Of a stretch of DNA of 64,000 bases, positions 1 to 32,269 are shown piece by piece. A program made the position numbers and the translations under genes. Source of the DNA: Squalus acanthias. Taxonomy: Eukaryota. Location of the stretch: NCBI GenBank assembly GCA_030390025.1, contig CM059430.1, forward strand, positions 57,536,001 to 57,600,000, read 5' to 3'. Every line of letters starts with the position of its first letter. Position 1 is the stretch's first letter. The notes below the pieces were generated by a model. The model made no database searches. It worked only from the letters and a program-made list of their open reading frames with translations, and was not told the DNA's origin.

Positions 1-3000
1 TCTAGGTAAGGGCATGTGACTTTGAGCCTTGGTTAGACACATGAGCTGAGTTTTAGTGACATGTTACACTGAGGTGCTGTGCCATGGAGTACTCAGACGG
101 AGGTTCCCCTCTTCTCCCTCCCTTCCTCCAAACAGACAATCAACAGGGTATCTGGGATAGGCAAGACTCCTTCCTGAAGGGAGGGAGGGAAACGGAGGAT
201 AGTTTAATGCACATCACTCACTCTCCTGGTGACCAGCTCAAAAGCAGCGTAGGCTTCGACTGTGGTTACCTAGGAAACCTCACACCCGAAGACACAGGAA
301 TCATGCAGGGGGAAACCCAAGGTTAAACAAAAGCAGCAGAGAATATGGCAGCCATTTTACCTCACAGAATCTTTTATACATTCGGACCTCTAAAGCCTGT
401 TGTGGTCTCCACAGCTCAGCGTGTGGTCTGGCACTCTCGTTCATTAGTCGTGATGGTGACATCTCCAGCTTTGTAGATTTTGCACTGCGTTCCTTTAGAG
501 ATACTAAGAGATTGTGTGTTTCTGACTCCCTTTCTCTCAAATGATAGTTGGGGTCATGCAAAGCCAGTGAGGACATTACTAAATAATGCAGCACTTCCAC
601 CCTTCAGGGTATGGCGAGAAACTCCCTGGCCGTCCCACCACACTCCTCCTTTTAACTCCAACAGGAGTGTGCCGGGATGAGGCCGGGGGCCGGCCTTGCA
701 GCGGGGACTCTGGGCTGGAGTTTCAGTCCCAAGGCCAGCAGTGGGGGCGGGGACGGAGATTCCCAGCGCTGGGAGCTGCCGCGTCCCCCGCTCTGAGTGG
801 GATCATCAGCCCCTTGGCAGCAGCGGGCCTGGGGTCCACAGCAAGCCTAGGAGTGGGGGCCCAGTCTGGTGGGAGTGGGGGCCCAGGGAAGAATCGTGAT
901 GGGGGCCTGGCTTTTTGCACCTGTGGCGGGCCAGAGCCACTTTCCCCGCTATTTCTATTGATAAAACAGGCCCCTGACCTCAGACACTCCAGTGGGGACA
1001 GATACCGAGGCTTCCAGCGGCCTATTTCTGGGATCCACAGCCCATGGGTCTTCCAGTCAATGACTTCATGGGGATAGATTCTGTCAGATTAAATGAGGAT
1101 TTATTTTGAGGCTTTCGTTCGGTATTTTCTGCCTTTGTGAATTAAGTTGCTGAATTCATTTATCGACCAATCTTTTTACATTTCTTAATGAAATAACGAG
1201 ATGAATTGCGCAGACATGTCTCTGATGATAAAGTTACACTTACATTTGCCCATAGTCTTTCTGTGGGGTTTTGCATTGCAAGCTGCTGTCAGACAAACAT
1301 CCAAACAGCACAGCACCCTCTACAGGGCATCTGGGACCTGTGTGAGCAGGGTGAGCAACTGTGTATCTCCTTAACCAATCAGATAGAAGAATCGTTAATG
1401 AGCAGCGCAGAGTCTGAACCAGGAAGTGTCAGTTAGAATAGTGAATTCAATGTCAAATCAGGCACAGAAAGCAAAATAAAAAGAGGGAAAGAAAGATTGG
1501 ATTAAGAGAGAAAAAAAGAAAGGAAAAAGTAAAAAAAAAGTCTTTTAATTTAAATTTGTATTTTATTAATCTCCATAATAATTAGAAGTTGAAGAAATGA
1601 GACTCCATAATTGTAAAAGTTGCTTTTCAGTGCCAGAGAGCTTGTTTGGCACTAATTAAGAATCATAGAAATTTACGGCACAGAAGGAGGCCATTTCGCC
1701 CATCGTATCTGCTGGCCAAAAAAGAGCTATCCACCCTAATCCCACTTTCCAGCTCCTGGTCCATAGCCTGTAGGTTACAGCACAGCCGGTGCACATCCAA
1801 GTACTTTTTAAATGTGATGAGGGTTTCTGCCTCTACCACCCTTTCAGGCAGTGAATTCCAGCCCCACCCCCCTCCCCCCCAAAAAAAAGTTCTCCTCAAC
1901 TCCCCTCCAATCATTCTACCAATTACTTTAAATCTATGCCCCCTGGTTGTTGACCTCTCTGCTAAAGGAAATAGGTCCTTCTTATCCACTCTATCTAGGC
2001 CCCTCATAATTTTATACACCTCAATTAAATCTCCCCTCAGCCTCCTCTGTTCCAAAGAAAACAACCCCAGCCTATCCAATCTTTCCTCAGAGCTAAAATT
2101 CACCAGTCCTGGCAACATCCTCGTAAATCTCCTCTGTACCCTCTCTAGTGCAATCACATCTTTCCTGTAATGTGGTGACCAGAACTGCACACAGTATTCT
2201 AGCTGTGGCCTAACTAGTGTGTTATACAGTTCAAACATAACCTCCCTGCTCTTATATTCTATGCCTCGGATAATAAAGGAAAGTATCCCGTATGCCTTCT
2301 TAACCACCTTATCTACCTGTCCTGCTACCTTCAGGGATCTGTGGACATGCACTCCAAGGTCCCTCTGTTCCTCTACACTTCTCATTTATTGTGTATTCCC
2401 TTGCCTTGTTAGCCCTCCCCAAATGCATTATCTCACACTTTTCTGGATTGAATTCCATTTGCCTCTTTTCTGCCCACCTGACCAGTCCATTGATATCTTC
2501 CTGCAGTCTACAGCTTTCTTCCTCACTATCAATCACATGGCCAATTTTTGTATATTCTGCAAACTTCATAATCATACCCCCTACATTGAAGTCTAAATCA
2601 TTGATATATATCACAAAAAGCAAAGGACCCAGTACTGAGCCCTGTGGAACCCCACTGGAAACAACTTTCCAGTCACAAAAACACCCATCGGCCAATTTTG
2701 GATCCAACTTGCCGCTTTCCCTTGGATCCCACGGGCTTTTACTTTTCTGACCAGTCTGCAATGTGGGACCTTGTCAAAAGCCTTGCTAAAACCCATGTAG
2801 ACTACATCAAATGCACTACCCTCATTGACCCTCCTTGTTACCTCCTCAAAAAATTCAATCAAATTAGTCAGACACAACCTTCCCTTAACAAATCCATGCT
2901 GACTGTCCTTGACTAATCCGTGTCTTTCTAAATGACGATTTATCCTGTCCCTCAGAATTTTTCCAATAATTTGCCCACCACCGAGGTTAGGCTGACTGGC

Positions 3001-5908
3001 CTGTAATTATTCAGTCAATTCCTTTCTCCCTTTTTAAACAACAGTACAACGTTGGCAGTCCTCCAGTCCTCCGGCACCACACCTGTAGCCAGAGAGGATT
3101 GGGATGTGATGGTCAGGGCCTCCGCTATTTCCTCCCTTGCTTCCCTTAACAGCCTGGGATACATTTCATCCGGGCCTGGTGATTTATCTACTTTCAAAGA
3201 TGCTAAACCCCTTAATATTTCCTCTCTCACTAATCTCATCTAATATTTCATACTCCTCCTTAACTACAATGTCCGCATCGTCCTACTCTTCTGTGAAGAC
3301 AGACACAAATATTCATTAAAAATCATACCCACGTCTTCCACCTCCACACATAGGTTACCTTTCTGGTCTCTAATAGGTCCTACTCTTTCTTTAGTTACCC
3401 CTTTGCTCTTTATGTATTTATAAAACATCTTTGGGTTTTCCTTGATTTTACTTGCCAATATTTTTTCATACCCTCTCTTTGCCTTCCTAATTTCCTTTTT
3501 AATTTCACCCCTGCACTTTCTATACTCCTCTTGGCTTTCTGTAGTATTGAGCTCTCGGTAACTGACATGAGCTTCCCTTTTTTGCCTTACCTACCCGGTA
3601 TACCGCTTGACATCCAGGGGGCCCTAGATTTGGGAGTCCCACCCTTTTTCTTTGTGGGAACATATTTGCTCTGAATCCTCACTATCACCTCCTTGAACAC
3701 CTCCCATTGCTCTGATACTGATTTACCTTCAAGTAGCAGTTTTCAGTCCACTTTTGCTAAATCACATCTCAGCTTCGTAAAATTGGCCTTTCTCCAATTG
3801 AGAACTTTTATTCCTGGTCTATCTTTGTCCTTTTCCATAACTGCACTAAATCTAACTGAATTATGCTCACTACCACCAAAATGCTCGCCCACTGATAACC
3901 CTTCCACCTGCCCAGCTTTAGTCCCTAAAACCAAGTCCAGAACCGTCCCCTCTCTCATTGGGTTTGCTACGTACTGGCTAAAAAAGTTCTCATGAATGCA
4001 TTTTAAGAATTCTGCGCACTCTGTACCTTTTACACTAATTCTATCGCAGTTAATATTAACGTAGTGGAATTCTCCTACTATTATTGCCCTATTGTTTTTG
4101 CACTTCTCAGAAATTTCCCTCAATATTTGCTCTTCTATCTCCCTCTGACTATTCAAGGGTCTATAGTACACTCCCAGCAGTGTGATTGCCCCTTTTTTGT
4201 TGTTCAGTTCAACCCATATGGCTTCAATTGATGGTCCTTCTAACATATATCCCTCCTCACAGCTGTAATTGTTTCTTTAACCAATATTGCAACCCCTCCC
4301 TCCTTTTTTATCCCGCTCTCTATCCCATCTGAAAACCCTGTAACCAGGAATGTTGAGCTGCCATTCCTGCCCTTCTTTCAGCCATGTTTCAGTAATAGCT
4401 ATGATATCATACTTCCACATGTCTCTCTGTGCTCTCAGCTGCTCTGCCTTATTCACTAGACTCCTGGCACTGAAGTATATACCATTAAGCACTTCCAAAC
4501 TCCCTTGTTGTCTATTTTCTAGCCTTTGTTTCCTCTGCCTACTAACCTCACTTACTAATTTTCTGCCTTTCATTTCCAGCTTTGCTTCTCCCTTCTGAAT
4601 CTACGCTCAGGTTCCCATCCCCCTGCCGAGCTAGTTTAAACCCTCTCCAACAGCACTAGAAACCCCCACCATGCACCCCACCCCCCCCACCCCGCAAAGA
4701 TATTGGTACCGGCTCTGTTGAGGTGCAGCCCGTCCAGCCTGTACAAGTCCCACCTCCTCCAGAACCGGTCCCAATGCCTCAGGAATCTAAAGCCATCCCT
4801 CCTGCACCATCTCTCCAGTCACGCATTCATCCGCTCTATCATCCTACTTCTGTACTCACTAGTACATGGCACCGGGAATAACCCAGAGATTACTACCTTT
4901 GAGGTCCTGCTTATTAATCTCTTTCCTAGCTCCCTAAAATCTGCCTGCAGGACTGCATTCCCTCTTTCTACCTATGTCATTGGTACCGATATGGACCACG
5001 ACCTCTGGCTGTTGTAAGTGGTTTTCTCGAGCGCACCGAAAACACACCTCTTACTACAAGTTCTGGACGATAGGGATTATATGGAACAGATCAGACTCGG
5101 ACACCCGTTTGAGCTCAACCGCATTGTGTTTAATAGGATTAACAATAACACTCGTAACAGTGCAAAACAATCAGCAATAACACTTGTAACAGTACAAAAC
5201 AATACAACCCTGGCTTGTCCAACAAGCCATACCGTGCTAAATTACCACGGTCTAATAAAAGAACCCTCCCGTGAAATAAACTAACACAGGACCCCAGCAC
5301 TAAACCCCTCTAAGGTTTGGTTGGGACTTACAATCACCCCCTCACACAGCTAAGTGGTCTTGTGGATGTGTAGGCGCAGGCAATATGCTCACCCCGATTG
5401 CCCGTTGTCTTGCTTGCAGCTTCTTCCTGTACATCTCGCTCCTGGTTCCGTACCGCCGGCGCAGTATCCAAGTTTCAGTTTGAGTCGAGGTCCGTTGATG
5501 AGGGATGAAGAGCAGCGCTCAGCTTCTGGCGGTGTTCCGTCGAGCCGAGCCTCACTCGGGAGACTCGCTGTAGATTGATGCCAAGGAGAAGAGAGAGAGA
5601 GAGCAGCCCCCGAACGGCTCCTGATATACCCAAAACCCATCGCCTTTTCCTCCTGTCAATACTGATCGATGTATTGACTCAAGTGATCTGTCTGGACCCC
5701 CCCCCCCCCACCACTGTGGCCTGGAGTGACTCATGACCGTTGAAATCTTTGTGAAAAATTATATTCCGTTTCCCCGCTCCCAGGCCTGGCACCTGGAGAG
5801 ACAATGAGTGCTGATTACTGGATATCTGTCGTTTCCTGAGTTGATGGCCCCCATTAGCAGGTAATGGGTTTCAATCTCAAACCGAACTTGCTTAACTGGC
5901 TTATCTCC

Positions 5909-8899: not shown

Positions 8900-9434
8900 G
8901 TTTGGAGTCGGGAGGAAAGCTCCCGGGGATACTCCCTGGCGTTGCTCCCGCTCCCTGGTCTGTGGATAGCCCGGGGCTTCACTTCGAGGGACGGGTGGCT
9001 GGGATCTCCACCAGGGCAGGAGCACCTGATGCTGGCGAGGTGGCGGGACCCCGGGAGCGGGACAATGTCACACGGTATGGGATCTGGGGCAGTCAGCAGC
9101 ACCGGAAAGCAGCGCTTTCCTTCTGAGTATTAGCAGGTAGTCGAGTCGGCTGTGCAGACAGGGCGGGCGGGCAAGGCGGAGGGAGAGGGGGGGCGTTGGT
9201 GATTGAACCTCTGATAATATTTCCGCTTTTATCTTGCGGGGAGCTGTGGCAGTTTGTCAGCGCACTCTTTGTGTGTTGCCGCTGCTCCATCTGCAGAGCA
9301 GGCAGGCAGGCAGCGAGCGGGGCCAGGCGCTCTGTGCAAACCGCAGCTCCCGGGCGAGGAGCTTCCCTGGGCCGGGGGACCTGCTCTCCAGAGCCAGCTG
9401 CGATCACTCGCCCGGCCAACCGCCGCCGCTCGGC
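8900..9434 (+). promoter_or_regulatory. CpG-rich putative promoter/5'UTR of the VJ-C1 receptor gene
   Basis: GC/CpG-rich stretch with GGGCGGGCGG GC boxes (~9161) directly upstream of the leader ATG. Confidence 0.45.
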
Positions 9435-9489
9435 ATGTCCTCCAGAACCACACTGCAGTCGCTGCTGATCCTGGCACTGGTCTCCGCAG
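9435..9489 (+). CDS. VJ-C1 Ig-superfamily receptor, exon 1 (signal peptide MSSRTTLQSLLILALVSA)
   Basis: ATG in ggcATG context, hydrophobic leader, phase-1 donor CAG|gtgggt, in frame with the V exon. Confidence 0.8.
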
Positions 9490-10042: not shown

Positions 10043-10360
10043 TTACCGGGAATCCCGTGCTGCGTGTGGGGCAGTTCCCCGTCAGCCTGAACCAGACCAA
10101 AGGTAGCAATGTGAGCTTGTATTGCACCTTCCCGTTTGCCCAGGATAAAGCAAGTGTCCGAGTGCACTGGTGGAGGGAGGGCGAGCCCAGATTCCTGAAG
10201 GCAAAACGTGACAGCAGGTATCAATTTGAAATTGTCAATAAAGTCAGCGCCGCCTTTCACCTCCTGAATGTGGGCACCTCGGACTCGGGCCTTTATTACT
10301 GCCGAGTGAACAACGCGGGCCAAGTGGGGAATGGGACCGGCTCAAGGCTCCTGGTAACCG
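10043..10360 (+). CDS. VJ-C1 receptor exon 2: single-exon V-set domain with germline J-like G strand (NKp30/antigen-receptor-like)
   Basis: ttccctgcag acceptor, G|gtgagt donor, phase 1-1; SLYCTF, VHWWRE, DSGLYYC, then GNGTGSRLLVT (diglycine GxG...LxV J motif); no RSS seen. Confidence 0.92.
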
Positions 10361-15959: not shown

Positions 15960-16265
15960 CTTCTCTCGATCCGCCGCAGATTGTCCCCACCCTGTTTGGA
16001 AAAGAGTCATCGTTTTTCCTCAGGCTTGCCTGTAACACTGGCGGCTTTCACTCCAGGGAGCTGAGCATCAAGTGGTTTGTGAACGGCAACGAAATTGGAA
16101 CGGAGATCCGCAATGATATTCAGCCACGGCCAGGAGGCCTCTTCGAAGTTTCCAGCTATTTGGAGGCAGTGCCGCCTGTTCAGAATGGGACAGTTTACAC
16201 CTGCCGGGTCTCCTACCTGGACAGCCAGGTTCAAACCCTTTACACCTACATTTCCAGTGCTGAAG
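15960..16265 (+). CDS. VJ-C1 receptor exon 3: C1-set Ig domain
   Basis: Acceptor gtcccaaag, donor G|gtacag, phase 1-1, open; ASLDPPQIV...LACNTGGFHSRELSIKWFVNG...GLFEVSSYL...VYTCRVSY matches the C1-set pattern (Cxx.GF, W, F...S.L, YxCxV). Confidence 0.88.
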
Positions 16266-17212: not shown

Positions 17213-18145
17213 TAATCCAAGTTTGCTGATGATACAAAGCTAAGTGCGACAGTCAGCTGTGAGGAGAACACAAAGAGTCTGCAAACGAATATAGATAGAC
17301 TAAGTGGGTGGGCAGTAAGGTGGCAGATGGAGTATAATGTAGGGAAATGTGAGGTTATTCACTTTGGTAGGAAGAATAGAAAAACAGAATATTTTTTAAA
17401 TGGTGAGAAACTTTCAAATGTTGGTGTTCAGAGAGATTTGGGTGTCCTCGTGCAAGAAACACAGAAAGCTAGCATGCAGGTACAGCAAGCAATAAGGAAG
17501 GCAAATGGCATGTTGGCCTTTATTGCAAGGGTGTTGGAGTATAAGAGTAAGCAAGTCTTGCTACAATTGTACAGGGCCTTGGTGAGACCACACCTGGAGT
17601 ACTGTACACAGTTCTGGTCTCCTTATCTAAGGAAGGATATACTTGCCTTGGAGGCAGTGCAACGAAGGTTCACTAGATTGATTCCTGGGATGAGAGGGCT
17701 GTCCTATGATGAGAGATTGTGTAGAATGGGCCTATACTCTCTAGAGTCTAGAAGAATGAGAGGTGATCTCATTGAAACATACAAGATTCTGAAGGGGATT
17801 GACAGGGTAAATGCTGAGAGGTTGTTTCCCTTGGCTGGAGTGTCTAGAACTGGGGGCATAGACTCAGGATAAAGGTTCGGCCATTTAAGACTGAGATGAG
17901 GAGGAATTTCCTCACTCAGAGAGTTGGGAATCTTTGGAATTCTCTGCCCCAGAGGGCTGTGAATGCTGAGTCTTTGAGTATATTCAAGGCTGAGATAGAT
18001 AGATTTTTGGACTCATGGGGAATCAAGGGATATGGAGATCGGGCGGGAAAGTGGAGTGGAGGTCGATGATCAGCCATGATCTTATTGAATGGTGGAGCAG
18101 GCTCGAGGAGCCGTATGGCCCACTCCTGCTTCTTATGTTCTTATA
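17213..18145 (+). mobile_element. CR1 LINE 3' fragment (RT C-terminus)
   Basis: KFADDTK, WQMEYNVGKCEVIHFG, LVRPHLEYC, 3' cttatgtt tail. Confidence 0.9.
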
Positions 18146-18777: not shown

Positions 18778-18891
18778 AGAGAGAATCAGATGTTCTGCCC
18801 TGGTGGATCTATATCTGTATAGGCTGTGGAGCTTTCCTCCTGCTGCTCCTGATTATTACACCAATACTTTGTAAATTCTGTGGATGCAGAG
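18778..18891 (+). CDS. VJ-C1 receptor exon 4: transmembrane exon (ERESDVLPWWIYICIGCGAFLLLLLIITPILCKFCGCR)
   Basis: gttgcag acceptor, G|gtaagc donor, phase 1-1; ~23-residue hydrophobic helix with no charged residue. Confidence 0.85.
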
Positions 18892-19618
18892 GTAAGCATG
18901 CTGTATTATGCTAAATGGTTTAAATTAAGAATTTTCAATATACTTTATAAAAACACAAGTTACAATGAACTGAAGTGATAATGCAAGTGAAATATACTTG
19001 TCTGAAGTAACTGTACTCATGGATTTAAACAATTAAGTTCAGTGAACACTTAGGAGGGCATCGTAATAATGGGAAAGTTGATATTCTTCTGTGGTGAATA
19101 ATTTACTATACATCACTAGACAACCTCTTCAGTTGTTGGTTTGACATGTGAATGGAGTAAATGTTGTAATATCTCAGGTATTGCAAGAGAGGCAAAAGAC
19201 TGGATCACTGCCACAGACATTTACACCATGTATTGCAACGACTATCCTAATATTACAGTTTCCTCACTACAGCACTGCAGCCTAGCTCTGTCCCGTTACT
19301 GGTAGATGTGATGGAGAAGAGTGGTATATATGAATAATGCAAGGAGGGGTACACTGTGTTGTTCTGGGATCCTGGAGTTCCCTTGCAACTCTACAGATAA
19401 GATTGTGGTAACTCTCCATTATCCCAGCAGTGTTTAAGTCATGTTAGATTTTCTAAAGGGCAGTTTAAAAGCTGCACTTTATCAATAGCATCAAAAGTCA
19501 AACAGTAACCTTATTTTCCATCCAAGGTAGGTAGGCTGCACCAGGTTAAATGTCCACCAGCCCCACTATATCTAAAGACTATATTAGCTCATAACCTAGT
19601 TAAGGGATACTATCCTCC

Positions 19619-20254
19619 TAGATATTGGGGATCACTCTCGCCTCGTCTCACGATCTAGATATTGGGGATCACTCTTGCCTCCCCTCACCTCCTAGATATT
19701 GGGGATCACTCTCACATCCCCTCACGATCTAGATATTGGGGATCACTCTCACCTCCCCTCACGATCAAGGTATTGGGGATCACTCTCACCTCTCCTCACG
19801 ATCTAGATATTGGGGATCACTCTCACATCCCCTCACGATCTAGATATTGGGGATCACTCTCACCTCCCCTCACGATCTAGATATTGGGGATCACTCTCAC
19901 CTCCCCTCACGATCTAGATATTGGGGATCACTCTCACCTCCCCTCACGATCTAGATATTGGGGATCACTCTCACATCCCCTCACGATCTAGATATTGGGG
20001 ATCACTCTCACATCCCCTCACGATCTAGATATTGAGGATCACTCTCACCTCCCCTCACGATCTAGATATTGGGGATCATTCTCACCTCCCCTCATGATCT
20101 AGATATTGGGGATCACTCTCACCTCCCCTCACGATCTAGATATTGGGGATCACTCTCACCTCCCCTCATGATCTAGATATTGGGGATCACTCTCACCTCC
20201 CCTCATGATCTAGATATTGGGGATCACTCTCACCTCCCCTCACGATCTAGATAT
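19619..20254. repeat. 37-bp minisatellite, ~17 copies (TAGATATTGGGGATCACTCTCACCTCCCCTCACGATC)
   Basis: Highly homogeneous tandem units in intron 4. Confidence 0.95.
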
Positions 20255-20788: not shown

Positions 20789-20832
20789 GCAAAGGGAGAA
20801 AAGCAAATGAAAGAAGTGTTCAGGAAAAGCAG
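20789..20832 (+). CDS. VJ-C1 receptor exon 5: short cytoplasmic exon (GKGRKANERSVQEKQ)
   Basis: ttattctgtaccag acceptor, CAG|gtaagt donor; phase 1 to 0 links the TM exon and terminal exon in frame. Confidence 0.7.
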
Positions 20833-21669
20833 GTAAGTTGACTATAATCCTTTTTATCAGCTGCTCTGGAATTTGTTTAAAATTAGTTTTGTACAGAATA
20901 AAATGTCCTAAACATGGAGAACGAAAAAGAGAATTGAGATTAAGCAGCAACTTCATCTTTCTGTGTACATTCCGCCCTGGATCACGGACGTGGTTTGAAT
21001 TTAATACATAGAAATTGTTGTGCTCCCTCTGTTGTCTTGAAGGATTGTCTAATGACTTTTTTAAAATGCTCTCCCGCTCAGGCCTCTGACTAAAATTGCA
21101 GTTAGGTCCCGATCGTGTCATCAGGACCCGACCTGTACATTTAAAGCGGGTTCCCACTACCTTCCTGTGCGTGTCCTGCTCAAAAGAGCATCGGAACCCG
21201 GTGGGCAGGCAGTGGGACCGCAGGGGGTAAATCGCTGCCCCTGTTGTAACTGCCTTCCTGCCTCATTTCCGCCCTTTGGAGGTGGGGGAGAGGGAGTTAA
21301 GGAAGGTAAGTCGCAGGGGGAGGGGAGGCGGGGGTGGTGTCACGATCGCAGAGGGTGGGGGTCCCGGGTGGCAGCGGCCCAGGTTATTTTTTGTGGGCCC
21401 TGGAGGTGGACTCCCGCTCTTCCACGGGCCACAAACATAATTCGACTTCCCTTTGCTGGGCCTCTTCTCTTCCGTCGCCCCTTTTAAAATGGTGCCGACC
21501 GCATCGCTGGTGTTAATGGGCCGGTAAGGCTACCAACCCTATTTGAGGCCGTTACTGCCCCGTTAACGCAAGGCAAAGGCAGTCACAATCAACCCCATTG
21601 TCTCTGGGGATTTTGATGTTGTCTAAAAGTCAATATCTTGTCAATCTCTTTTATACTATTATCTTGCAG

Positions 21670-21921
21670 CATTTGCAGAGACCAGCTAATTACAAGATGG
21701 CATATACTGTTAATGATTTCACCAGCCTCACGAAAGAGACTAAGCCCCAGCACGTGGACAAGAGACCAGCATGCCCCCACATGCCACCGAGAAACCAGCA
21801 GAGAGATGGCAAGCTGGTTTATGCAACACCACAATTCAAACAGCGCCAGGGCAGAAACCAGTTACCTGAACCCAAGAACAACAAATCAGTTACTAGCAAG
21901 AAGTTTGTTCTCCAACCTTAG
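21670..21921 (+). CDS. VJ-C1 receptor exon 6: cytoplasmic tail with Tyr motifs (MAYTVN, LVYATP), stop TAG
   Basis: Phase-0 acceptor atcttgcag (alternative in-frame acceptor at 21679); joined CDS is 1089 nt = 362 aa + stop. Confidence 0.68.
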   Translation, partial: HLQRPANYKMAYTVNDFTSLTKETKPQHVDKRPACPHMPPRNQQRDGKLVYATPQFKQRQGRNQLPEPKNNKSVTSKKFVLQP

Positions 21922-23814
21922 CTGGTCCTGAATTAACATTTCAAAATCTATGCTGACAGCACTTTTTAAATGGTTCATCCAATCTCTTCAGGATATATTT
22001 TCTTACTCTGTCCCCTCATGAATGTGCTAAGTAACAAGCTTTGTGTTATGAATATGACAAATAATATGATGGCAACTTATGCTAATGACAATAGCTTCAT
22101 TAGTGTTAGGCAGCAACTGTCTACCCATAGCACTCTGCAAATCTCTTTTAATACTGTAAAGGAACACTGGCAAAGTGTGGGGCCAACATGAATGAAAAGT
22201 CCTAGAAACTGAAATTGGATTGGTATTAAATTACAAGAAAAATGTCCATCCCCAGCACCAACATCCTTACCTTGAAAAGCACAAAATTCACCAGAAAACA
22301 GAGCTTGCACTGCACACCCACAGGATCATTTTACAATTTTGCTTTATTCGCTTGCGTGGTCCTGTGTGCAGGACTGGTAGCAAATGTTGCTGAGGAATTA
22401 AAATCCGCGGTCCGAAAAATAAGGTGGGTGGACAGGGATGAGAGTTTTCAGCTAATAAAAAGAAACAACTGTTATTGACGTAGAAAGGCATTTTGTGCAG
22501 AGCCAGCGGACAAGATTATAAAATAAATAAAGTTATCAGCTAAATTTAACGAGCAACCTCTTAACACAGAGAACGCAGACCAGGGCATGGAATGAGAAAG
22601 TGCCATTCAGATCAATCCTTTTACAGACCATGTACAATTTTCACTATGATGGATTTAATCTCCTGGTAGAAATGAACAGCTGAGGCCAGAACCTAGCCGA
22701 GCAAAACATCCCATAAATGAATTTAAAAAAAACATCAGATCAATTGAGCACTTTAATTTAAACTACTCCAGTCTGGCTGCATTCCACTGAAACCCTGATT
22801 ATCATTATCACAGAAACATAGGAATGTTAGCAGTGTTTGATATAAGTCCATAGTTAACCAGATATTTATTTGGCTCTTCATAGAATCATACAGCATTGAA
22901 GGAGGCCATTCAGGCCATCATGCCTGTGCCAGCCCTTTGAAGGAGCTGTACAATTAGTTTCAGTCCTTTTAGTCTTTTTTTAATAAAGCAGCTAATTGTA
23001 GTGTTAATTGCTTCTGATGGGAATCCATACCACAGATTAACTTTGTATGCAAAAAATGAGAATATATTAACCTCTTTCAAGCCTTGTTAATTTTGGACTC
23101 AACCTCTAATTCTTCAAAATTAAAATTAAATAATTTGCTTACAGCTCAAGTTTTAAAGATGTTGATCACGTCCTCTCTAACTATTTTTCTCCACTGATTT
23201 CTAGTTCCTCTTCATAACTAGAATGTTAAGGCCCCAAATCACTCTCGTTCTTCTCAGAACAATCTCCAATGCACCAATGTTTTTTTTGAGGCCAGAGTGT
23301 TTTAAACTGTACACATTACCCCAACATCTGCCCTTACCAAAAACCCCTTTCAACGAACGATCAGTGAGTTTATTCTGCAGAACTCAATTGCTCTCTGCCT
23401 CCAGACAGAGCTTTCTCCATTCATTACCCTCTCCTGCTTTCTCCTGCCAAGCCAGTACACCTAACACATGTGCCATTCATTTCAAGAACATTAGTCTTCC
23501 TTAAAAGCTTCACAAATGGAACTGGATAAAGTCACTAGCTTATGACTTGGTTCATGCCTCGAATCGTTAGACAGCTCCCATTGATGCTCATGTATCCTGA
23601 GGGTGTGCACCACCAGCTAATTGCATGTACTGTAATTGTAGATGATGTTCGATGCTGAGGGGGAGATAGCAATCTTGCTTAATGGTGCAACCACAACCTA
23701 CGTGCATTGGTGGTGGGGGGGGCACCATCCCTGCAGACAGTAATGGAGCCTACTGTACAAGTATGATTGACTTTATGGTCATGGTACTGGTTTGGGGGTT
23801 TAATGTTTTAAAAG

Positions 23815-23894
23815 AGAAACTGGTTTATGCCACAATAGCAATTCCCAGCCAGTTGGAACAGAAGTTGCAACAGTGCCTAGAAAAAAGAAAATAA
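23815..23894 (+). CDS. Candidate alternative terminal exon with canonical ITIM (EKLVYATIAIPSQLEQKLQQCLEKRK*)
   Basis: aaactggtttatgccaca is paralogous to aagctggtttatgcaaca in exon 6; weak acceptor ttttaaaag; AATAAA overlapping the stop and again at ~24065. Confidence 0.4.
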
Positions 23895-26670
23895 ACCCAA
23901 TCATTTGGTGTTAACATTGAGATTATGGAAGGTTAATTTATCAGAGCTGAGAGATCAAAGTCTGTGGTTTTCGTGATGGTTCATTATGTCCTGTGCAACT
24001 CTAGAACGCAATGGGTAGATTTTATATGATGTATATCTCTGCACTGTAAACTCTTTGTCAGTAAAATAAAGGCTTATATTTCTGTAGCTGGAGTCACAGG
24101 GCACAATATCATTTCAGTTTAAGTCACATGGTAGACTCGATAGACACTCATGTATTAGATTCATTCACCTGCTTTTACACATAACCTTGCTTAAAACTTA
24201 AATTTTATTTCTATGATTGTTTGGAGGCTGTTGGTGTTCAGAAGATGTCTTAAAACGGTCAAGCTTCTCAAGTATTCACAGTAACTCCCATCTTATATGG
24301 TTCTCATTTAGAAATCAGTGAACAAATGGGCGGAAGAGCCTGTCTGCAGACAGCTGTATGGATAGTTTTCACACCCCGCATCAGGCTCTTACCTACAATC
24401 ATTCCTGTGGGAGGCAGTTAACCTCACCATCTCCTTTTTAAGCAGCATTGACAGTCGCAGACAACTTCTCTAATCGCATGTAACAGATTCACGTCACTGT
24501 GCACTTTGGTAAATCCAGATTGGAATTAACATGTGGTACTGATTCACGAGCCAGGTGAATAGTCTCAGTCAATACGTTGCTCCGTGCATGTTCCAAACTC
24601 TTGGCAAGTTCAGCACTCGCCAATTGTGCTGAGTAGTCCAGAGCTTTGCATGCTGCACCCTCTGGCTTGTATGGTATCAACCAGAGTGCAGAATCATGCC
24701 ATTAACTACCACGGTCACCTATTCTAATCCTGGATCCTGTGTCTTGGTGAGCTGCAGTGTGTCCATTTGATATCTGCATCAGATACGCCCTTCTCCAAAA
24801 TGCTGCTGGGGCCCTTTGAGCAATGAGAAACCATGTTTAATACTGGATTTTGGATGTGTGAATTGTCCATGTTTTTACAATGAGACTCGTGCAAAAGACA
24901 AGTGCCAATCGTTAGTGTTCTGCGGGCACAGGTATTGGAGTAGGACTTCACTAAATGTTCACTCACATATTGGGGCAGGCTTTGTGATGATTGCTATGCT
25001 AATATGTATTTCTACTGAATACAGGCAACGGACAGGTAGGTCACTTACCAGATCCAATGGCAGCCTCACGTGTGGAGCTGCAGTTGGTTATAACCTGATC
25101 ATGCAAGATATTTCCGAGGTGCGCTTCACTCCTGTTCAGTTAGTTGAGGTTTCCGACAGTGCTCCATTTTAGCTCTTGCAGCCCTTTTCAGGCCATTGTT
25201 TGCAATAGTCTTCTGCAGTTCTTGTCATTGTTCTAAATTCATCACATTTTTCATACATAGCTGGAAAACTAGCGAAAGGTGACCATCACTTCAAAAAAAG
25301 CCAAAAGCTCCAAAAATACTGATAGCTGAAAAATAGTTCTGAAATAGAGGCCTATGATATGTGAAGACAAGAAGTTAGACCGAGAGTGCAATGGGACACA
25401 AACTCGTCTAAACATAAGCTGTAAATATACAAAACATTGCATCACTTTATTGCAGTGCACACAAACACAGTTAGCAGCAATTGCAATTTGGAGCCTGCTG
25501 TAATTCTGAGTGAATCTATCTAATCTTTTAATTGAAGTAAAAATTCATCAGCACTCCAACCCCACGCCTCATTTTATTTCCAAGCCATAGCAATTGCACA
25601 AGTACAGCGACAGGAACTGTCAAATAAAACCCGTCAAGATATTCACACCAGTGAACACCCACCTTAACTCAAAAAAGCAGCTGCGTTGAGGAAAATAAAC
25701 CTTCACCAAAGACAAGAGTCAGCCATGTCCCAGAGATGTGCTTTGAGGAAAATAAAAAAGCTTTAAAAGTTCGTTTTAATTTGGTCATTTTTCTTTTTTC
25801 CAAAAATTCCAATTATACAGAGTTCAAATTGAGCAATTTCACTAAAACAGCATAATGTGTTTTGTGCATGATTTTAATCTGAGTTAATAGGTCATTTGAA
25901 TTAAGCAACTTGGAATTAAGAAGAATAATACTGCACATGGGGGGCAAGCACTAACATATCCCATAACTGTGACTCTTAGAAACCATCAGCTCCTTTTATA
26001 TTTTTCTGCCTCCAGTTTGTGCTCAATAAACAACCGGAGAAAGTAACATCTTTCAATGTTGGCCGCCAGTCAATCTGGTTCTGACCGGCTCTCGTTGCTC
26101 CTTCCAAATTATGGTTGGAAATCTGGCTGATCAGCCGAGTGGGAGGTTGAAGCTGCAGTCATTCCAAATGTTGGCATTCCACCACGCTTCTCTTTCTAAC
26201 CCGTGCTGTTTCTTATACATGTCATTACTGCTCTTCACCAAATGAAACCTCCTTCTCTGAGTTTGCACACTGTCTGCACACACAAGTGATGTTTCAGCTC
26301 TATTAGTGCAGAGCGCCACCCAGTGGCTAAGATAACAGCGGAAGGGACAGGGAAGCTGCTCTGCCTCAATCGTCTCACCCAGCAGTGTGAAGGAGGTGCA
26401 CGAACCCTGTACAGTCATTTACTCACGAGTCTTCATCAATCCTTTCATTTCAAGCGTGAATGAACCCGCTAAACCTCGCTCATTGGAAGCGGCTGAAAAG
26501 CATACTTTAATCTGCGTCAAATTGCAAAACTGTACATTGCTGCATGTTTAAACAGGTTTGCGATCTGTCTCACTCTCTTCAGTGGAGCCGTTGAGAGCCG
26601 GCAAGCAGTGAGTGCGGGAGACTATGCGGACACCCCACTCCCCCCGTAAACCGAACATCAACTGATTCTG

Positions 26671-27780: not shown

Positions 27781-28987
27781 AAGCATAAAATTACAAAAGG
27801 ATATTGATAGATTAAGTGAATGGGCAAAACTGTGGCAAATGGATTTCAATGTAAGCAAATGTGAGTTCATCCACTTTGGACCTAAAAAGGATAGAACAGG
27901 TACTTTCTAAATGGTGAAAAGCTAAAAACAGTGGAGGTCTAAAGAGACTTGGGTGTTCAGGTACATAGATCATTAAAATGTCATGAACAGGTACAGAAAA
28001 TAATCAAAAAGGCTAATGGAATGCTGGCCTTTATATCTAGAGGACTAGAGTACAAGAGCATAACTTAAGAAATAGGAGCAGGAGTAGGCCATTTGGCCCC
28101 TTGAGCCTTCTCCGCCATTCAATAAGATCATGGCTGATCTGATCTTGGCCTCAACTCCACTTTCCTGCCCGCTCCCCATAACCCTTGACTCCCCTATAGT
28201 TCAAGAATCTGTCTATTTCCACCTTAAATATATTCAATGACCCAGCCTCCACAGCTCTCTGAGGTAGAGAATTCCAAAGATTCACAACCCTTAGAGAAGA
28301 AATTCCTCCTCATCTCCGTTTTAAATGGGCAATCCCTTATTCTGAAACTATGCCTCCTAGTTCTAGATTCCCCCACGAGGGGAAACATCCTCTCTGCAAG
28401 GTGTTGAAGTTATGCTGCAGCTGTACAAAACCCTGGTTAGACCACACCTGGAGTACTGTGAGTGGTTCTGGGCACCACACCTTCGGAAGGATATACTGGC
28501 CTTGGAGGGAGTGCAGCGTAGGTTTACCAGAATGAAACCCGGACTTCAAGGGTTAAGTTACGAAGAGAGATTACACAAATTAGGGTTGTATTCCCTAGAA
28601 TTTAGAAGGTTAAGGGGTGATCTGATCGAAGTTTTCAGGATATTAAGGGGAACAGATGGGGTAGAGTGAAACTATTTCCACTGGTTGGGGATTCTAGGAC
28701 TAGGGGGCATAGTCTAAAAATTAGAGCCAGACCTTTCAGGAGTGAAATTAGGAAATACTTCTACTCACAGAGGGTGGTAGAAGTTTGGAACTCTCTTCCA
28801 CAAACGGCAATTGATGCTAGATCAATTGTTAATTTTAAATCGGATATTGATAGCTCTTTGTTAACCAAAGGTATTAAGGGATATGGGCCAAAGGCGGGTT
28901 TATGGAGTTAGATCACAGATCAGCCATGATCTCATTGAATGGCGGAAAAGGCTCGAGGGCTGAATGGCCGACTCCTGTTCCTATGTT
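27781..28987 (+). mobile_element. CR1 3' fragment interrupted by an antisense CR1 3' fragment (~28059-28397)
   Basis: WQMDFNVSKC, LVRPHLEYC...W; inner segment aagaaataggagcaggagtagg...ggaaacatcctctctgc is a reverse-oriented CR1 tail. Confidence 0.85.
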
Positions 28988-29856: not shown

Positions 29857-31680
29857 TTATGATCTAAAATTGTTGAACTCGATATTGAGTCCAGAGGGCT
29901 GTAGCGTGCCTAAACGAAAGATGAGGTGCTGTTCCTCGAGCTTACGCTGAGCTTCCGTGGAACAGTGTATTAGGCCGAGGACGGTGAGGTCAGAGTGGGA
30001 GTGAAGCGGTGAATTAAAGTGACAGGCCACCGGGAGCTCGGGGTCCCCCTTACGGACTGAACGGAGGTGTTCCGCAAAGCGGTCACCCAATCTGCGTTTG
30101 GTCTCCCCAATGTAGAGGAGTCCACATCGTGAGCAGCGAATACAGTATACTAAATTGCAGGAAGTACAAGTAAATCGCTGTTTCACCTGGAAGGGGTGTT
30201 TGGGGCCCTGGACAGTGGGAAGAGGGGAGGTATAAGGGCATGTGTTGCATCTCCTGCGCGTGCACGGGAAGGTGCCGGGCGAAGGGGAAGGGGTGCTGGG
30301 GGTGGTAGAGGAGTGGACTAGGGTGTCGCGGAGGGAGCGGTCCCTGCGGAATGCTGAAAGGGGAGGTGAGGGGAAGATGTGTTTGGTGGTGGGATCACGC
30401 TGGAGGTGGCGGAAATGGCGGAGGATGATCCGTTGAATGTGGAGGCTGGTGGGGTGAAAGGTGAGGACAAGGGGAACCCTATCGTGGTTCCGGGAGGGAG
30501 GGGCAGGGGTGAGGGCAGATGTGCGGGAGATAGAACGGACACGGTCGAGGGCCGTGTCGACCACGGTAGAGGGGAATCCTCGGTTGAGGAAAAAGGAAGA
30601 CATGTCGGTATGGAAGGTGGCATCATCAGAGCAGATGCGGCGGAGACGGAGAAACTGGGAGAATGGAATAGAGTCCTTACAGGAGGCGGGGTGGGAGGAA
30701 GTGTAGTCCAGGTAGCTGTGGGAGTCGGTGGGCTTGTAGTGAATGTTAGTCAATAACCTATCCCCAGAGATGGAGATGGAGAAGTCGAGGAAGGGAAGAG
30801 AAGAGTCGGAGATGGACCATGTGAAGGTGAGGGAAGGGTGGAAATTGGAAGCATAGTGAATGAAATGTTCTAGTTCAGGGCGAGAGCAGGAGACGGCACC
30901 GATACAGTCATCAATGTACCGGAAAAAGAGGTGAGGGAGGGGACCCGAGTAGGACTGGAACAAAGAGTGTTCCACATATCCCACGAAAAGGCAGGCATAG
31001 CTAGGACCCATGCGGGTACCCATAGCAACACCTTTAATTTGGAGGAAATGGGTAGAGTCAAAGGAGAAGTTGTTCAATGTGAGAACAAGTTCAGCCAGGC
31101 GGAGGAGGGTGGTGGTGGATGGGGACTGGTTGGGCCTCTGTTCAAGGAAGAAGCGGAGCGCCCTCAGGCCATCCTGGTGGGGAATGGAGGTGTAGAGGGA
31201 TTGTACGTCCATAGTGAAGAGGAGACGGTTGGGGCCGGGAAACTGGAAACTGTTAAAATGGCGGAGGGCATCGGAAGAGTCGCGGATGTAGGTGGGAAGA
31301 GACTGGACAAGGGGAGAAAAAATAGAGTCGAGATAGGAAGAGATAAGTTCCGTGGGGCAAGAACAGGCTGAAACGATGGGTCTACCGGGGCAGTCCTGTT
31401 TGTGGATCTTGGGAAGGAGGTAGAAGCGGGCTGTGCGGGGTTGGGGAACTATGAGGTTGGCGGCCGTGGGGGGAAGATCTCCAGAGGAGATGAGGTCAGT
31501 GACAGTCTTGGACACGGTGGCTTGATGTTCGGTAGTGGGGTCATGGTCCAGGTGGAGGTAGGAGGAGGTGTCAGAGAGTTGGCGTTCAACTTCCGCTAGG
31601 TAGAGGTCGGTTCGCCAAACAACAACAGCGCCACCCTTGTCAGCAGGTTTAATGACAATGTCAGGGTTGGATCGGAGAGA
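29857..31680 (-). CDS. Penelope-like RT + Cys-rich linker + GIY-YIG endonuclease (N-terminally truncated, 607 codons open)
   Basis: IKPADKGG, LPKIHK, GRPIVS, MDVQSLYTSI, GVAMGTRMGPSYA, RYIDD, FLD, CTRRRCNTC, VYCIRC...YIGET. Confidence 0.92.
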   Translation of the reverse strand, partial: SLRSNPDIVIKPADKGGAVVVWRTDLYLAEVERQLSDTSSYLHLDHDPTTEHQATVSKTVTDLISSGDLPPTAANLIVPQPRTARFYLLPKIHKQDCPGRPIVSACSCPTELISSYLDSIFSPLVQSLPTYIRDSSDALRHFNSFQFPGPNRLLFTMDVQSLYTSIPHQDGLRALRFFLEQRPNQSPSTTTLLRLAELVLTLNNFSFDSTHFLQIKGVAMGTRMGPSYACLFVGYVEHSLFQSYSGPLPHLFFRYIDDCIGAVSCSRPELEHFIHYASNFHPSLTFTWSISDSSLPFLDFSISISGDRLLTNIHYKPTDSHSYLDYTSSHPASCKDSIPFSQFLRLRRICSDDATFHTDMSSFFLNRGFPSTVVDTALDRVRSISRTSALTPAPPSRNHDRVPLVLTFHPTSLHIQRIILRHFRHLQRDPTTKHIFPSPPLSAFRRDRSLRDTLVHSSTTPSTPSPSPGTFPCTRRRCNTCPYTSPLPTVQGPKHPFQVKQRFTCTSCNLVYCIRCSRCGLLYIGETKRRLGDRFAEHLRSVRKGDPELPVACHFNSPLHSHSDLTVLGLIHCSTEAQRKLEEQHLIFRLGTLQPSGLNIEFNNFRS

Positions 31681-32269
31681 ATGCCCTTACCTCTATCTGA
31701 TCAAGCTCTTCTGTTGGTCAGAAAGTTACACACAGAGCTCTCTGGGTACTGGCTGCAAAATTGAAACTGACTATGGAGTGTTTATTTCCAGGCAAGGTTG
31801 TCCATAGAAATAGTTTTATTGAAACAAAGGCAATGGACGACTGCATCTTTCATAATTACATTAGATCAACCGCCATCCACAGAAAGCTTCATTATCAATA
31901 GTGAATGCCAAGCCAACCTTGGCCAATGACCAAGATGTTTGTGATTGAACATGATGACTGATCAATTATTGTAGGCTCCTTGGGCGTCCCATTGTGATTG
32001 CTATAGAAACTTGTACCCTGTGAAACCCATGCAACCAGCTTGTCTGAGCTCTGAGCTGACAGCTTTACTGTTGAGAAAATACCCTGAATTAACCTCGCAC
32101 ATACTGATTCTAGCCATAAAAAATCAAAATCAATACTTCAATTTGTCACAGTCTACAGAAGAGCACTTCCACCACAGCTTACTGGATAGCAACTAGAAGC
32201 AGGAACACTAATTGATTTCCTCTTCCCCAATCAAGGGCACTGAGGTCTAAAGTAACGCACTAAGTTAAC

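Follow-up and report, generated by a model that had tools for sequence, protein, structure and literature searches.

A second KLVYAT motif downstream of the tail of a shark V-C1 receptor gene: splice switch, fossil exon, or look-alike in the 3' UTR

The terminal exon of a receptor gene of Squalus acanthias encodes the tyrosine motif KLVYATP, and the 18 nucleotides encoding KLVYAT recur farther downstream, in a frame that reads KLVYATIAI. The locus therefore raises the question of whether one gene could equip its receptor with either of two cytoplasmic tails through alternative splicing. The original prediction was of two isoforms, with and without SHP-1/2 recruitment, or, failing that, of a relic of an exon or gene duplication. 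Its starting observations were confirmed: both 18-mers are present, at 21811 and 23817, with identity at 16/18 nucleotides and both differences synonymous, and the stop codon of the downstream frame (23892-23894) overlaps an AATAAA at 23890. Joined on paper, 21808 and 23815 give RDEKLVYATI in frame, and a join of 20832 to 23817 is likewise in frame.

Gene structure and transcripts

The window (the whole 64-kb stretch of DNA that was analyzed) contains one gene of six exons, all on the plus strand, with a product of 362 aa. The coding part of exon 1 (9435..9489) encodes the signal peptide (GT..AG joint 9485/10039, cut +4, in runs X1, X2, and X4), and the 5' starts of transcript contigs lie upstream of it, at 9263-9388. 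Exon 2 (10043..10360) encodes a non-rearranging V domain with a joined J-like end, GNGTGSRLLVT (Pfam V-set, E=6e-9), and exon 3 (15960..16265) encodes a C1-set Ig domain (Pfam C1-set, E=2e-9), both supported by splice joints. Exon 4 (18778..18891), predicted to encode a transmembrane helix without a charged residue, and the short, basic cytoplasmic exon 5 (20789..20832) are supported by the gene model and by joints. The terminal exon 6 (21670..24084) consists of coding sequence (21670-21921, including the stop), which encodes RDGKLVYATPQF, and a 3' UTR of ∼2.16 kb, as delimited by contigs. Exon 6 could begin at either of two in-frame CAG acceptors, at 21670 and, 9 nt farther on, at 21679; the first is used in all six RNA-type runs.

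Transcript evidence was taken from assembled contigs rather than raw reads, and rare variants can drop out of contigs. Eight of 12 runs were examined (all but X7, X9, X10, and X12), comprising six of RNA type, from two studies, and two of DNA type from related organisms (X8 and X11). The RNA type of the six is a program's guess, as none is recorded as RNA, and we relied instead on the GT..AG joints within their contigs. All five modeled introns were seen as such joints, and exons 1 to 6 are as modeled.

Contigs cross 21808 and 23815 unbroken in X1 (21666-24016), X3 (21666-24082), and X5 (21666-23846). In X2 and X4 each position is crossed in a separate contig, and X6 crosses 23815 with a gap at 21808. 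The length of the X1 contig (3231) is that of the modeled spliced transcript (3231). Neither proposed junction (21808 to 23815 or 20832 to 23817) is present among the joints listed for the transcript contigs of the six RNA-type runs, and in all six the listed contigs fully reproduce the depth of the bins that hold the donor and the acceptor, leaving no unexplained remainder; in this check a junction contig at depth 2 adds 0.11, which is near the rounding limit, or 0.45, depending on the bin set. Because the contigs are unspliced through 21808 and 23815, KLVYATI falls within the 3' UTR, ∼1.9 kb in, and the second motif, with its frame to the stop (23817..23894), is almost certainly untranslated in the main mRNA. 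The expected transcription of 23815-23894 was thus found, but as unspliced 3' UTR. An on/off splice switch between two tails is not supported, and the pair of isoforms differing in SHP-1/2 recruitment has no counterpart either in these junctions or among the tails of 181 relatives.

The X3 contig ends at 24082 and the X4 contig at 24084, followed by 24 and 20 unaligned letters, respectively. These ends lie just past an AATAAA at 24065..24070, which is therefore likely to be the poly(A) signal used, and the AATAAA that overlaps the stop of the second frame (23890..23895) is read past by contigs of X1 to X4 and X6. Over 22906-24600 the DNA-type run X8 shows 58 differences and 4 gaps; X11 gave no coverage around the second motif. 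A G>A difference at 23823 in X3, inside the second motif, would change Val to Ile if translated; it was seen in one contig, at depth 16.

A search of the window with seven relatives as queries (tblastn) found no second Ig gene. Intron 4 contains a 37-bp minisatellite of 17 copies with 94% matches (19618-20254). Broken, reverse-transcriptase-like retrotransposon fragments are located at 1666-4600, 17216-18130, 27800-28960, and 29860-31686, and the longest open frame among them (609 aa) runs from 31686 to 29860 on the minus strand.

Tyrosine motifs of the tail

The ITIM consensus is [I/V/L/S]xYxx[I/L/V]. KLVYATI fits it on paper and is one of 5 such matches across the three frames of the UTR. 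KLVYATP had been regarded as an ITIM broken by Pro at Y+3, and several lines of evidence bear on that view. First, the terminal tail exon of the paralogs carries three tyrosines, in an ITIM (KLTYAALD), an ITSM (TEYAQL), and a terminal motif (DVIYTER), and the score of its alignment with exon 6 was reached by 0/2000 shuffles in each of six comparisons. The alignment pairs the ITIM with KMAYTVND (21694..21717), which is degraded, having Asn at Y+3; the ITSM (TTEYAQL) with ACPHM, in RPACPHM (21763..21783), where the tyrosine is replaced by Cys; and DVIYTER, the third tyrosine, with KLVYATP (21811..21831). Second, of 12 other shark and skate species, 11 have Pro at Y+3 of KLVYATP, one (Stegostoma) has Ala, and none has I, L, or V; Y-2 varies among A, V, I, L, H, and P. 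Third, Y+3 of the terminal tyrosine in the aligned paralogs is R, P, A, or V. By alignment and conservation, KLVYATP is the homolog of the terminal tyrosine and not a degraded ITIM; as its tyrosine lies off the ITIM position, the statement that Pro breaks an ITIM there is wrong.

The tyrosine of the ITSM is lost in all nine ortholog tails aligned. Y+3 of the proximal motif is Asn in S. acanthias versus I, V, L, or M in 10 of 12 other species. In the related runs X8 and X11, an A>G difference at 21712 would make this residue Asp.

The receptor would thus appear to have lost the canonical ITIM/ITSM pair, and signaling, if any, may proceed through binding of pY-A-T-P by an SH2 adaptor of the Crk/Nck type rather than through SHP-1/2. 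Nck and Abl are, besides CrkL, readers of YxxP. The conserved YxxP of KLVYATP is a putative SH2 adaptor site, and CrkL is described as binding YxxP in CBL (PMC4017086).

Beyond YATP, the C-terminal end (21858-21921) differs among species, being either RSVQ or a 20-aa extension that S. acanthias has in common with its Heterodontus ortholog. These differences are likely due to small frameshifts.

Origin of the second motif

If KLVYATI is not the product of a switch, its resemblance to the tail motif calls for another origin. We lean toward the view that the second copy is what remains of a tandem duplicate of exon 6 that has since decayed, a candidate for which, at 23576..23985 on the plus strand, is suggested by colinear matches at 23576-23647, 23817-23844, and 23976-23984 and is interrupted by a frameshift and stops. 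A correctly ordered match to the start of exon 6 (21645-21718, a stretch comprising the acceptor region and the proximal tyrosine) is found at 23576-23647, where 8 nt are deleted and Tyr is changed to Cys. This match was first spotted by eye, and several scorings were tried; with the motif excluded, it was reached by 0, 2, 3, 4, and 16 of 814 null windows in five scorings. The whole region, with the selected motif included, beats 502/502 null windows in three of four scorings, and 8/502 reach it in the fourth. Extension downstream from the anchored motif was reached by 3 to 8 of ∼395 null windows, a test that includes the motif-adjoining bases of the original 28-nt match, and the 2006-nt diagonal of the motif pair also holds an exact match of 9 nt.

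Other tests of the same region gave weaker results. Anchored extension upstream was not significant (reached by 73 to 359 of ∼395), nor were local tests downstream (101 to 387 of 1072), and the dot-plot band showed no enrichment. The summed anchored test was reached by 10 to 14 of ∼396 in three scorings and by 55/392 in a fourth. The spacing of the anchors is unequal (130 versus 205 nt), and similarity between exon 6 and 23576-23985 is patchy. The suggestion that the second motif is a relic receives modest support where exon duplication is concerned.

The segment 23576-23985 would have arisen by duplication of the tail exon, as in the paralogs. The V-C1 family does make such copies, since one paralog locus (L006, 1260-1740) has two tandem ITIM+ITSM tail exons 321 nt apart. 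The duplicate would then have decayed through the 8-nt deletion, the Tyr>Cys change at the proximal motif, and stops. Its own acceptor would sit near 23600, and its frame would break before KLVYATI.

The main alternative is that an ordinary 3' UTR contains, by chance, a sequence resembling the tail motif, noticed for reading as an ITIM, and we regard this as quite possible, if somewhat short of an even prospect. Outside tandem repeats, the window contains 23 pairs of at least 16/18 within 2.5 kb, some of which derive from dispersed repeats, and the DNA score of the 18-mer was reached by 9/300 shuffled UTRs in two scorings and by 70/300 in a third. In a blastn search of the window, the motif region gave E=0.88, and three other stretches tied with it. 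Matches to the ITIM consensus number 1.7 per kb per strand, and the UTR has 5 versus 3.4 expected. Protein similarity is absent beyond the six residues, and, with very many windows surveyed, rare coincidences are selected. Chance is nevertheless strained by the recurrence of a 6-aa word of exon 6 in only 6/1500 simulated UTRs, by the further colinear match, to the first part of exon 6, which played no part in the original prediction and was reached by so few of the 814 null windows (0 to 16), and by the duplication of tail exons in the family. Taken by itself, the likeness of the 18-mers is borderline above chance. The pair was not reported by a repeat finder with a minimum length of 20. A genome search (common words skipped) with the DNA of 23560-24100 and the 40-aa frame returned only the locus itself, with no source paralog or evident repeat.

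A third possibility retains a functional role for the second motif. A rare or tissue-restricted GC-AG splice from 21808 to 23815, or a skip of exon 6 (20832 to 23817), would give a minor isoform whose tail carries a canonical LxYxxI ITIM, putatively recruiting SHP-1/2. That both joins are in frame and that both nucleotide differences between the 18-mers are synonymous is consistent with such an isoform, as is the loss of rare variants from contigs. The proposed GC donor (21809..21810), use of which was not seen in contigs, fits 5/7 consensus positions and by simple counts ranks first among the 18 GC dinucleotides of the exon 6 coding sequence. GC-AG introns do exist: according to PMC7242645, they make up ∼0.8% of the junctions in coding genes of human and mouse and are associated with alternative splicing. 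We nevertheless consider this isoform highly improbable. All six RNA-type runs, from two studies, are without the junction or unexplained depth, and the AATAAA that follows the KLVYATI frame is read through. The 23815 acceptor has 50% pyrimidines, versus 55 to 85% for the five acceptors used, and is average for the UTR, being equaled or bettered by 68 of its 135 AGs (simple counts). The Gly codon (Y-4) that forms the donor is shared only by Heptranchias among 12 other species; the remaining 11 have Asp, Asn, or Ser, codons that would give neither GT nor GC at the proposed cut. A tail of the KLVYATI type is present in 0/181 proteins of relatives and is not annotated as an alternative tail among the RefSeq-modeled elasmobranch orthologs examined, and one database search returned no match, which is weak evidence.

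The broader scenario, in which a receptor that traded ITIM/ITSM for YxxP has inhibitory capacity restored to its tail in certain cells, where a rare splice of the GC-AG type joins a duplicated exon within the 3' UTR, also seems very unlikely. If it were true, one gene would give both signaling modes in an early jawed vertebrate. A whole-gene or 2-kb tandem duplication, the other form of relic suggested, is rejected, as neither intron 5 nor exon 5 was found a second time and the dot plot showed no enrichment.

Family membership and significance

Sequence comparison places the gene, as a single-copy and conserved member, in a large V-C1 "SIRP-like" family of cartilaginous fish, whose features (signal peptide, unsplit V, one C1, transmembrane segment, and homologous tail exon) are all found in it. 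Twelve other shark and skate species have orthologs, represented by automatically named RefSeq or GenBank models. They include RefSeq models of Heptranchias (XP_067853539.1), Heterodontus (XP_067905725.1), Scyliorhinus (XP_072374548.1), and Leucoraja (XP_055504563.1), named "uncharacterized" or "PTPNS1-like." The orthologs share the order of signal peptide, V, C1, transmembrane segment, and tail, a V domain that is 59 to 69% identical in the four closest matches, the proximal MxYT motif (except in the skate), and the YA[T/S]P motif.

Within the genome, the V domain has 130 matches (150 of 197 candidates were scored), most of them on the gene's own contig at 61-77 Mb. Genome searches with the exon 6 tail returned the tail itself and one match at E=0.69 with stops, and no second good match. 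The V-C1 paralogs clustered on contig C6 have homologous V domains (∼28 to 54%) and a homologous terminal tail exon, and their tails are built from tandem exons; they keep an intact ITIM and ITSM, whereas the gene studied here is without the ITSM tyrosine. The gene also differs from this cluster in its position, 3.6 Mb from the nearest match, and in a tail unique in the genome. Approximately 110 V-domain matches to the gene, several with stops, lie on contig C6 at 61-77 Mb, and a second group, of weaker matches, lies on contig C26 at 13-17 Mb.

The ectodomain of SIRP proper is V-C1-C1. The mammalian SIRP family (SIRP-alpha/PTPNS1) resembles the shark gene in its V-set and C1-set ectodomain and, in the wider family, in a tail with tyrosine motifs, but has two C1 domains where the shark gene has one C1 and lacks an intact ITIM/ITSM. 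Membership in SIRP proper was rejected, as there is one C1 exon and the joints run from it directly to the transmembrane exon. A match to PDB 2wng (E=4e-7) is weak and no better than those to antibody chains.

Among non-rearranging receptors, NKp30, PRARP, and UrIg are VJ-type genes, according to PMC10751288. Compared by their description there, they share with the shark gene a V exon that is unsplit and J-like at its end, with C1 following it as in UrIg; the shark gene differs in encoding a membrane receptor that has single V and C1 domains, an uncharged transmembrane segment, and a YxxP tail. The match to UrIg2 (PDB 9dmx) is weak (E=1e-7). Motifs of the CD28 family are covered in PMC11599192, the available part of which contains nothing on the shark gene. 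A literature search that covered few subscription journals and no supplements found no paper describing the gene or its tail.

What the locus offers is a look-alike within a 3' UTR, which may be a fossil exon; the gene's orthologs already have RefSeq models, and, as found, the second motif is ordinary and matters little. Comparative immunologists may find a side result mildly interesting: among >100 mostly clustered V-C1 genes, this one is a single-copy outlier, and its conservation from sharks to skate, with the ITSM tyrosine lost and YxxP kept, would predict adaptor-type rather than phosphatase-type signaling.

Two further observations concern the models of relatives. In Hemiscyllium, near-identical models have a tail that stops before the tyrosines, and in Scyliorhinus one annotated isoform is without the transmembrane exon and is possibly secreted.
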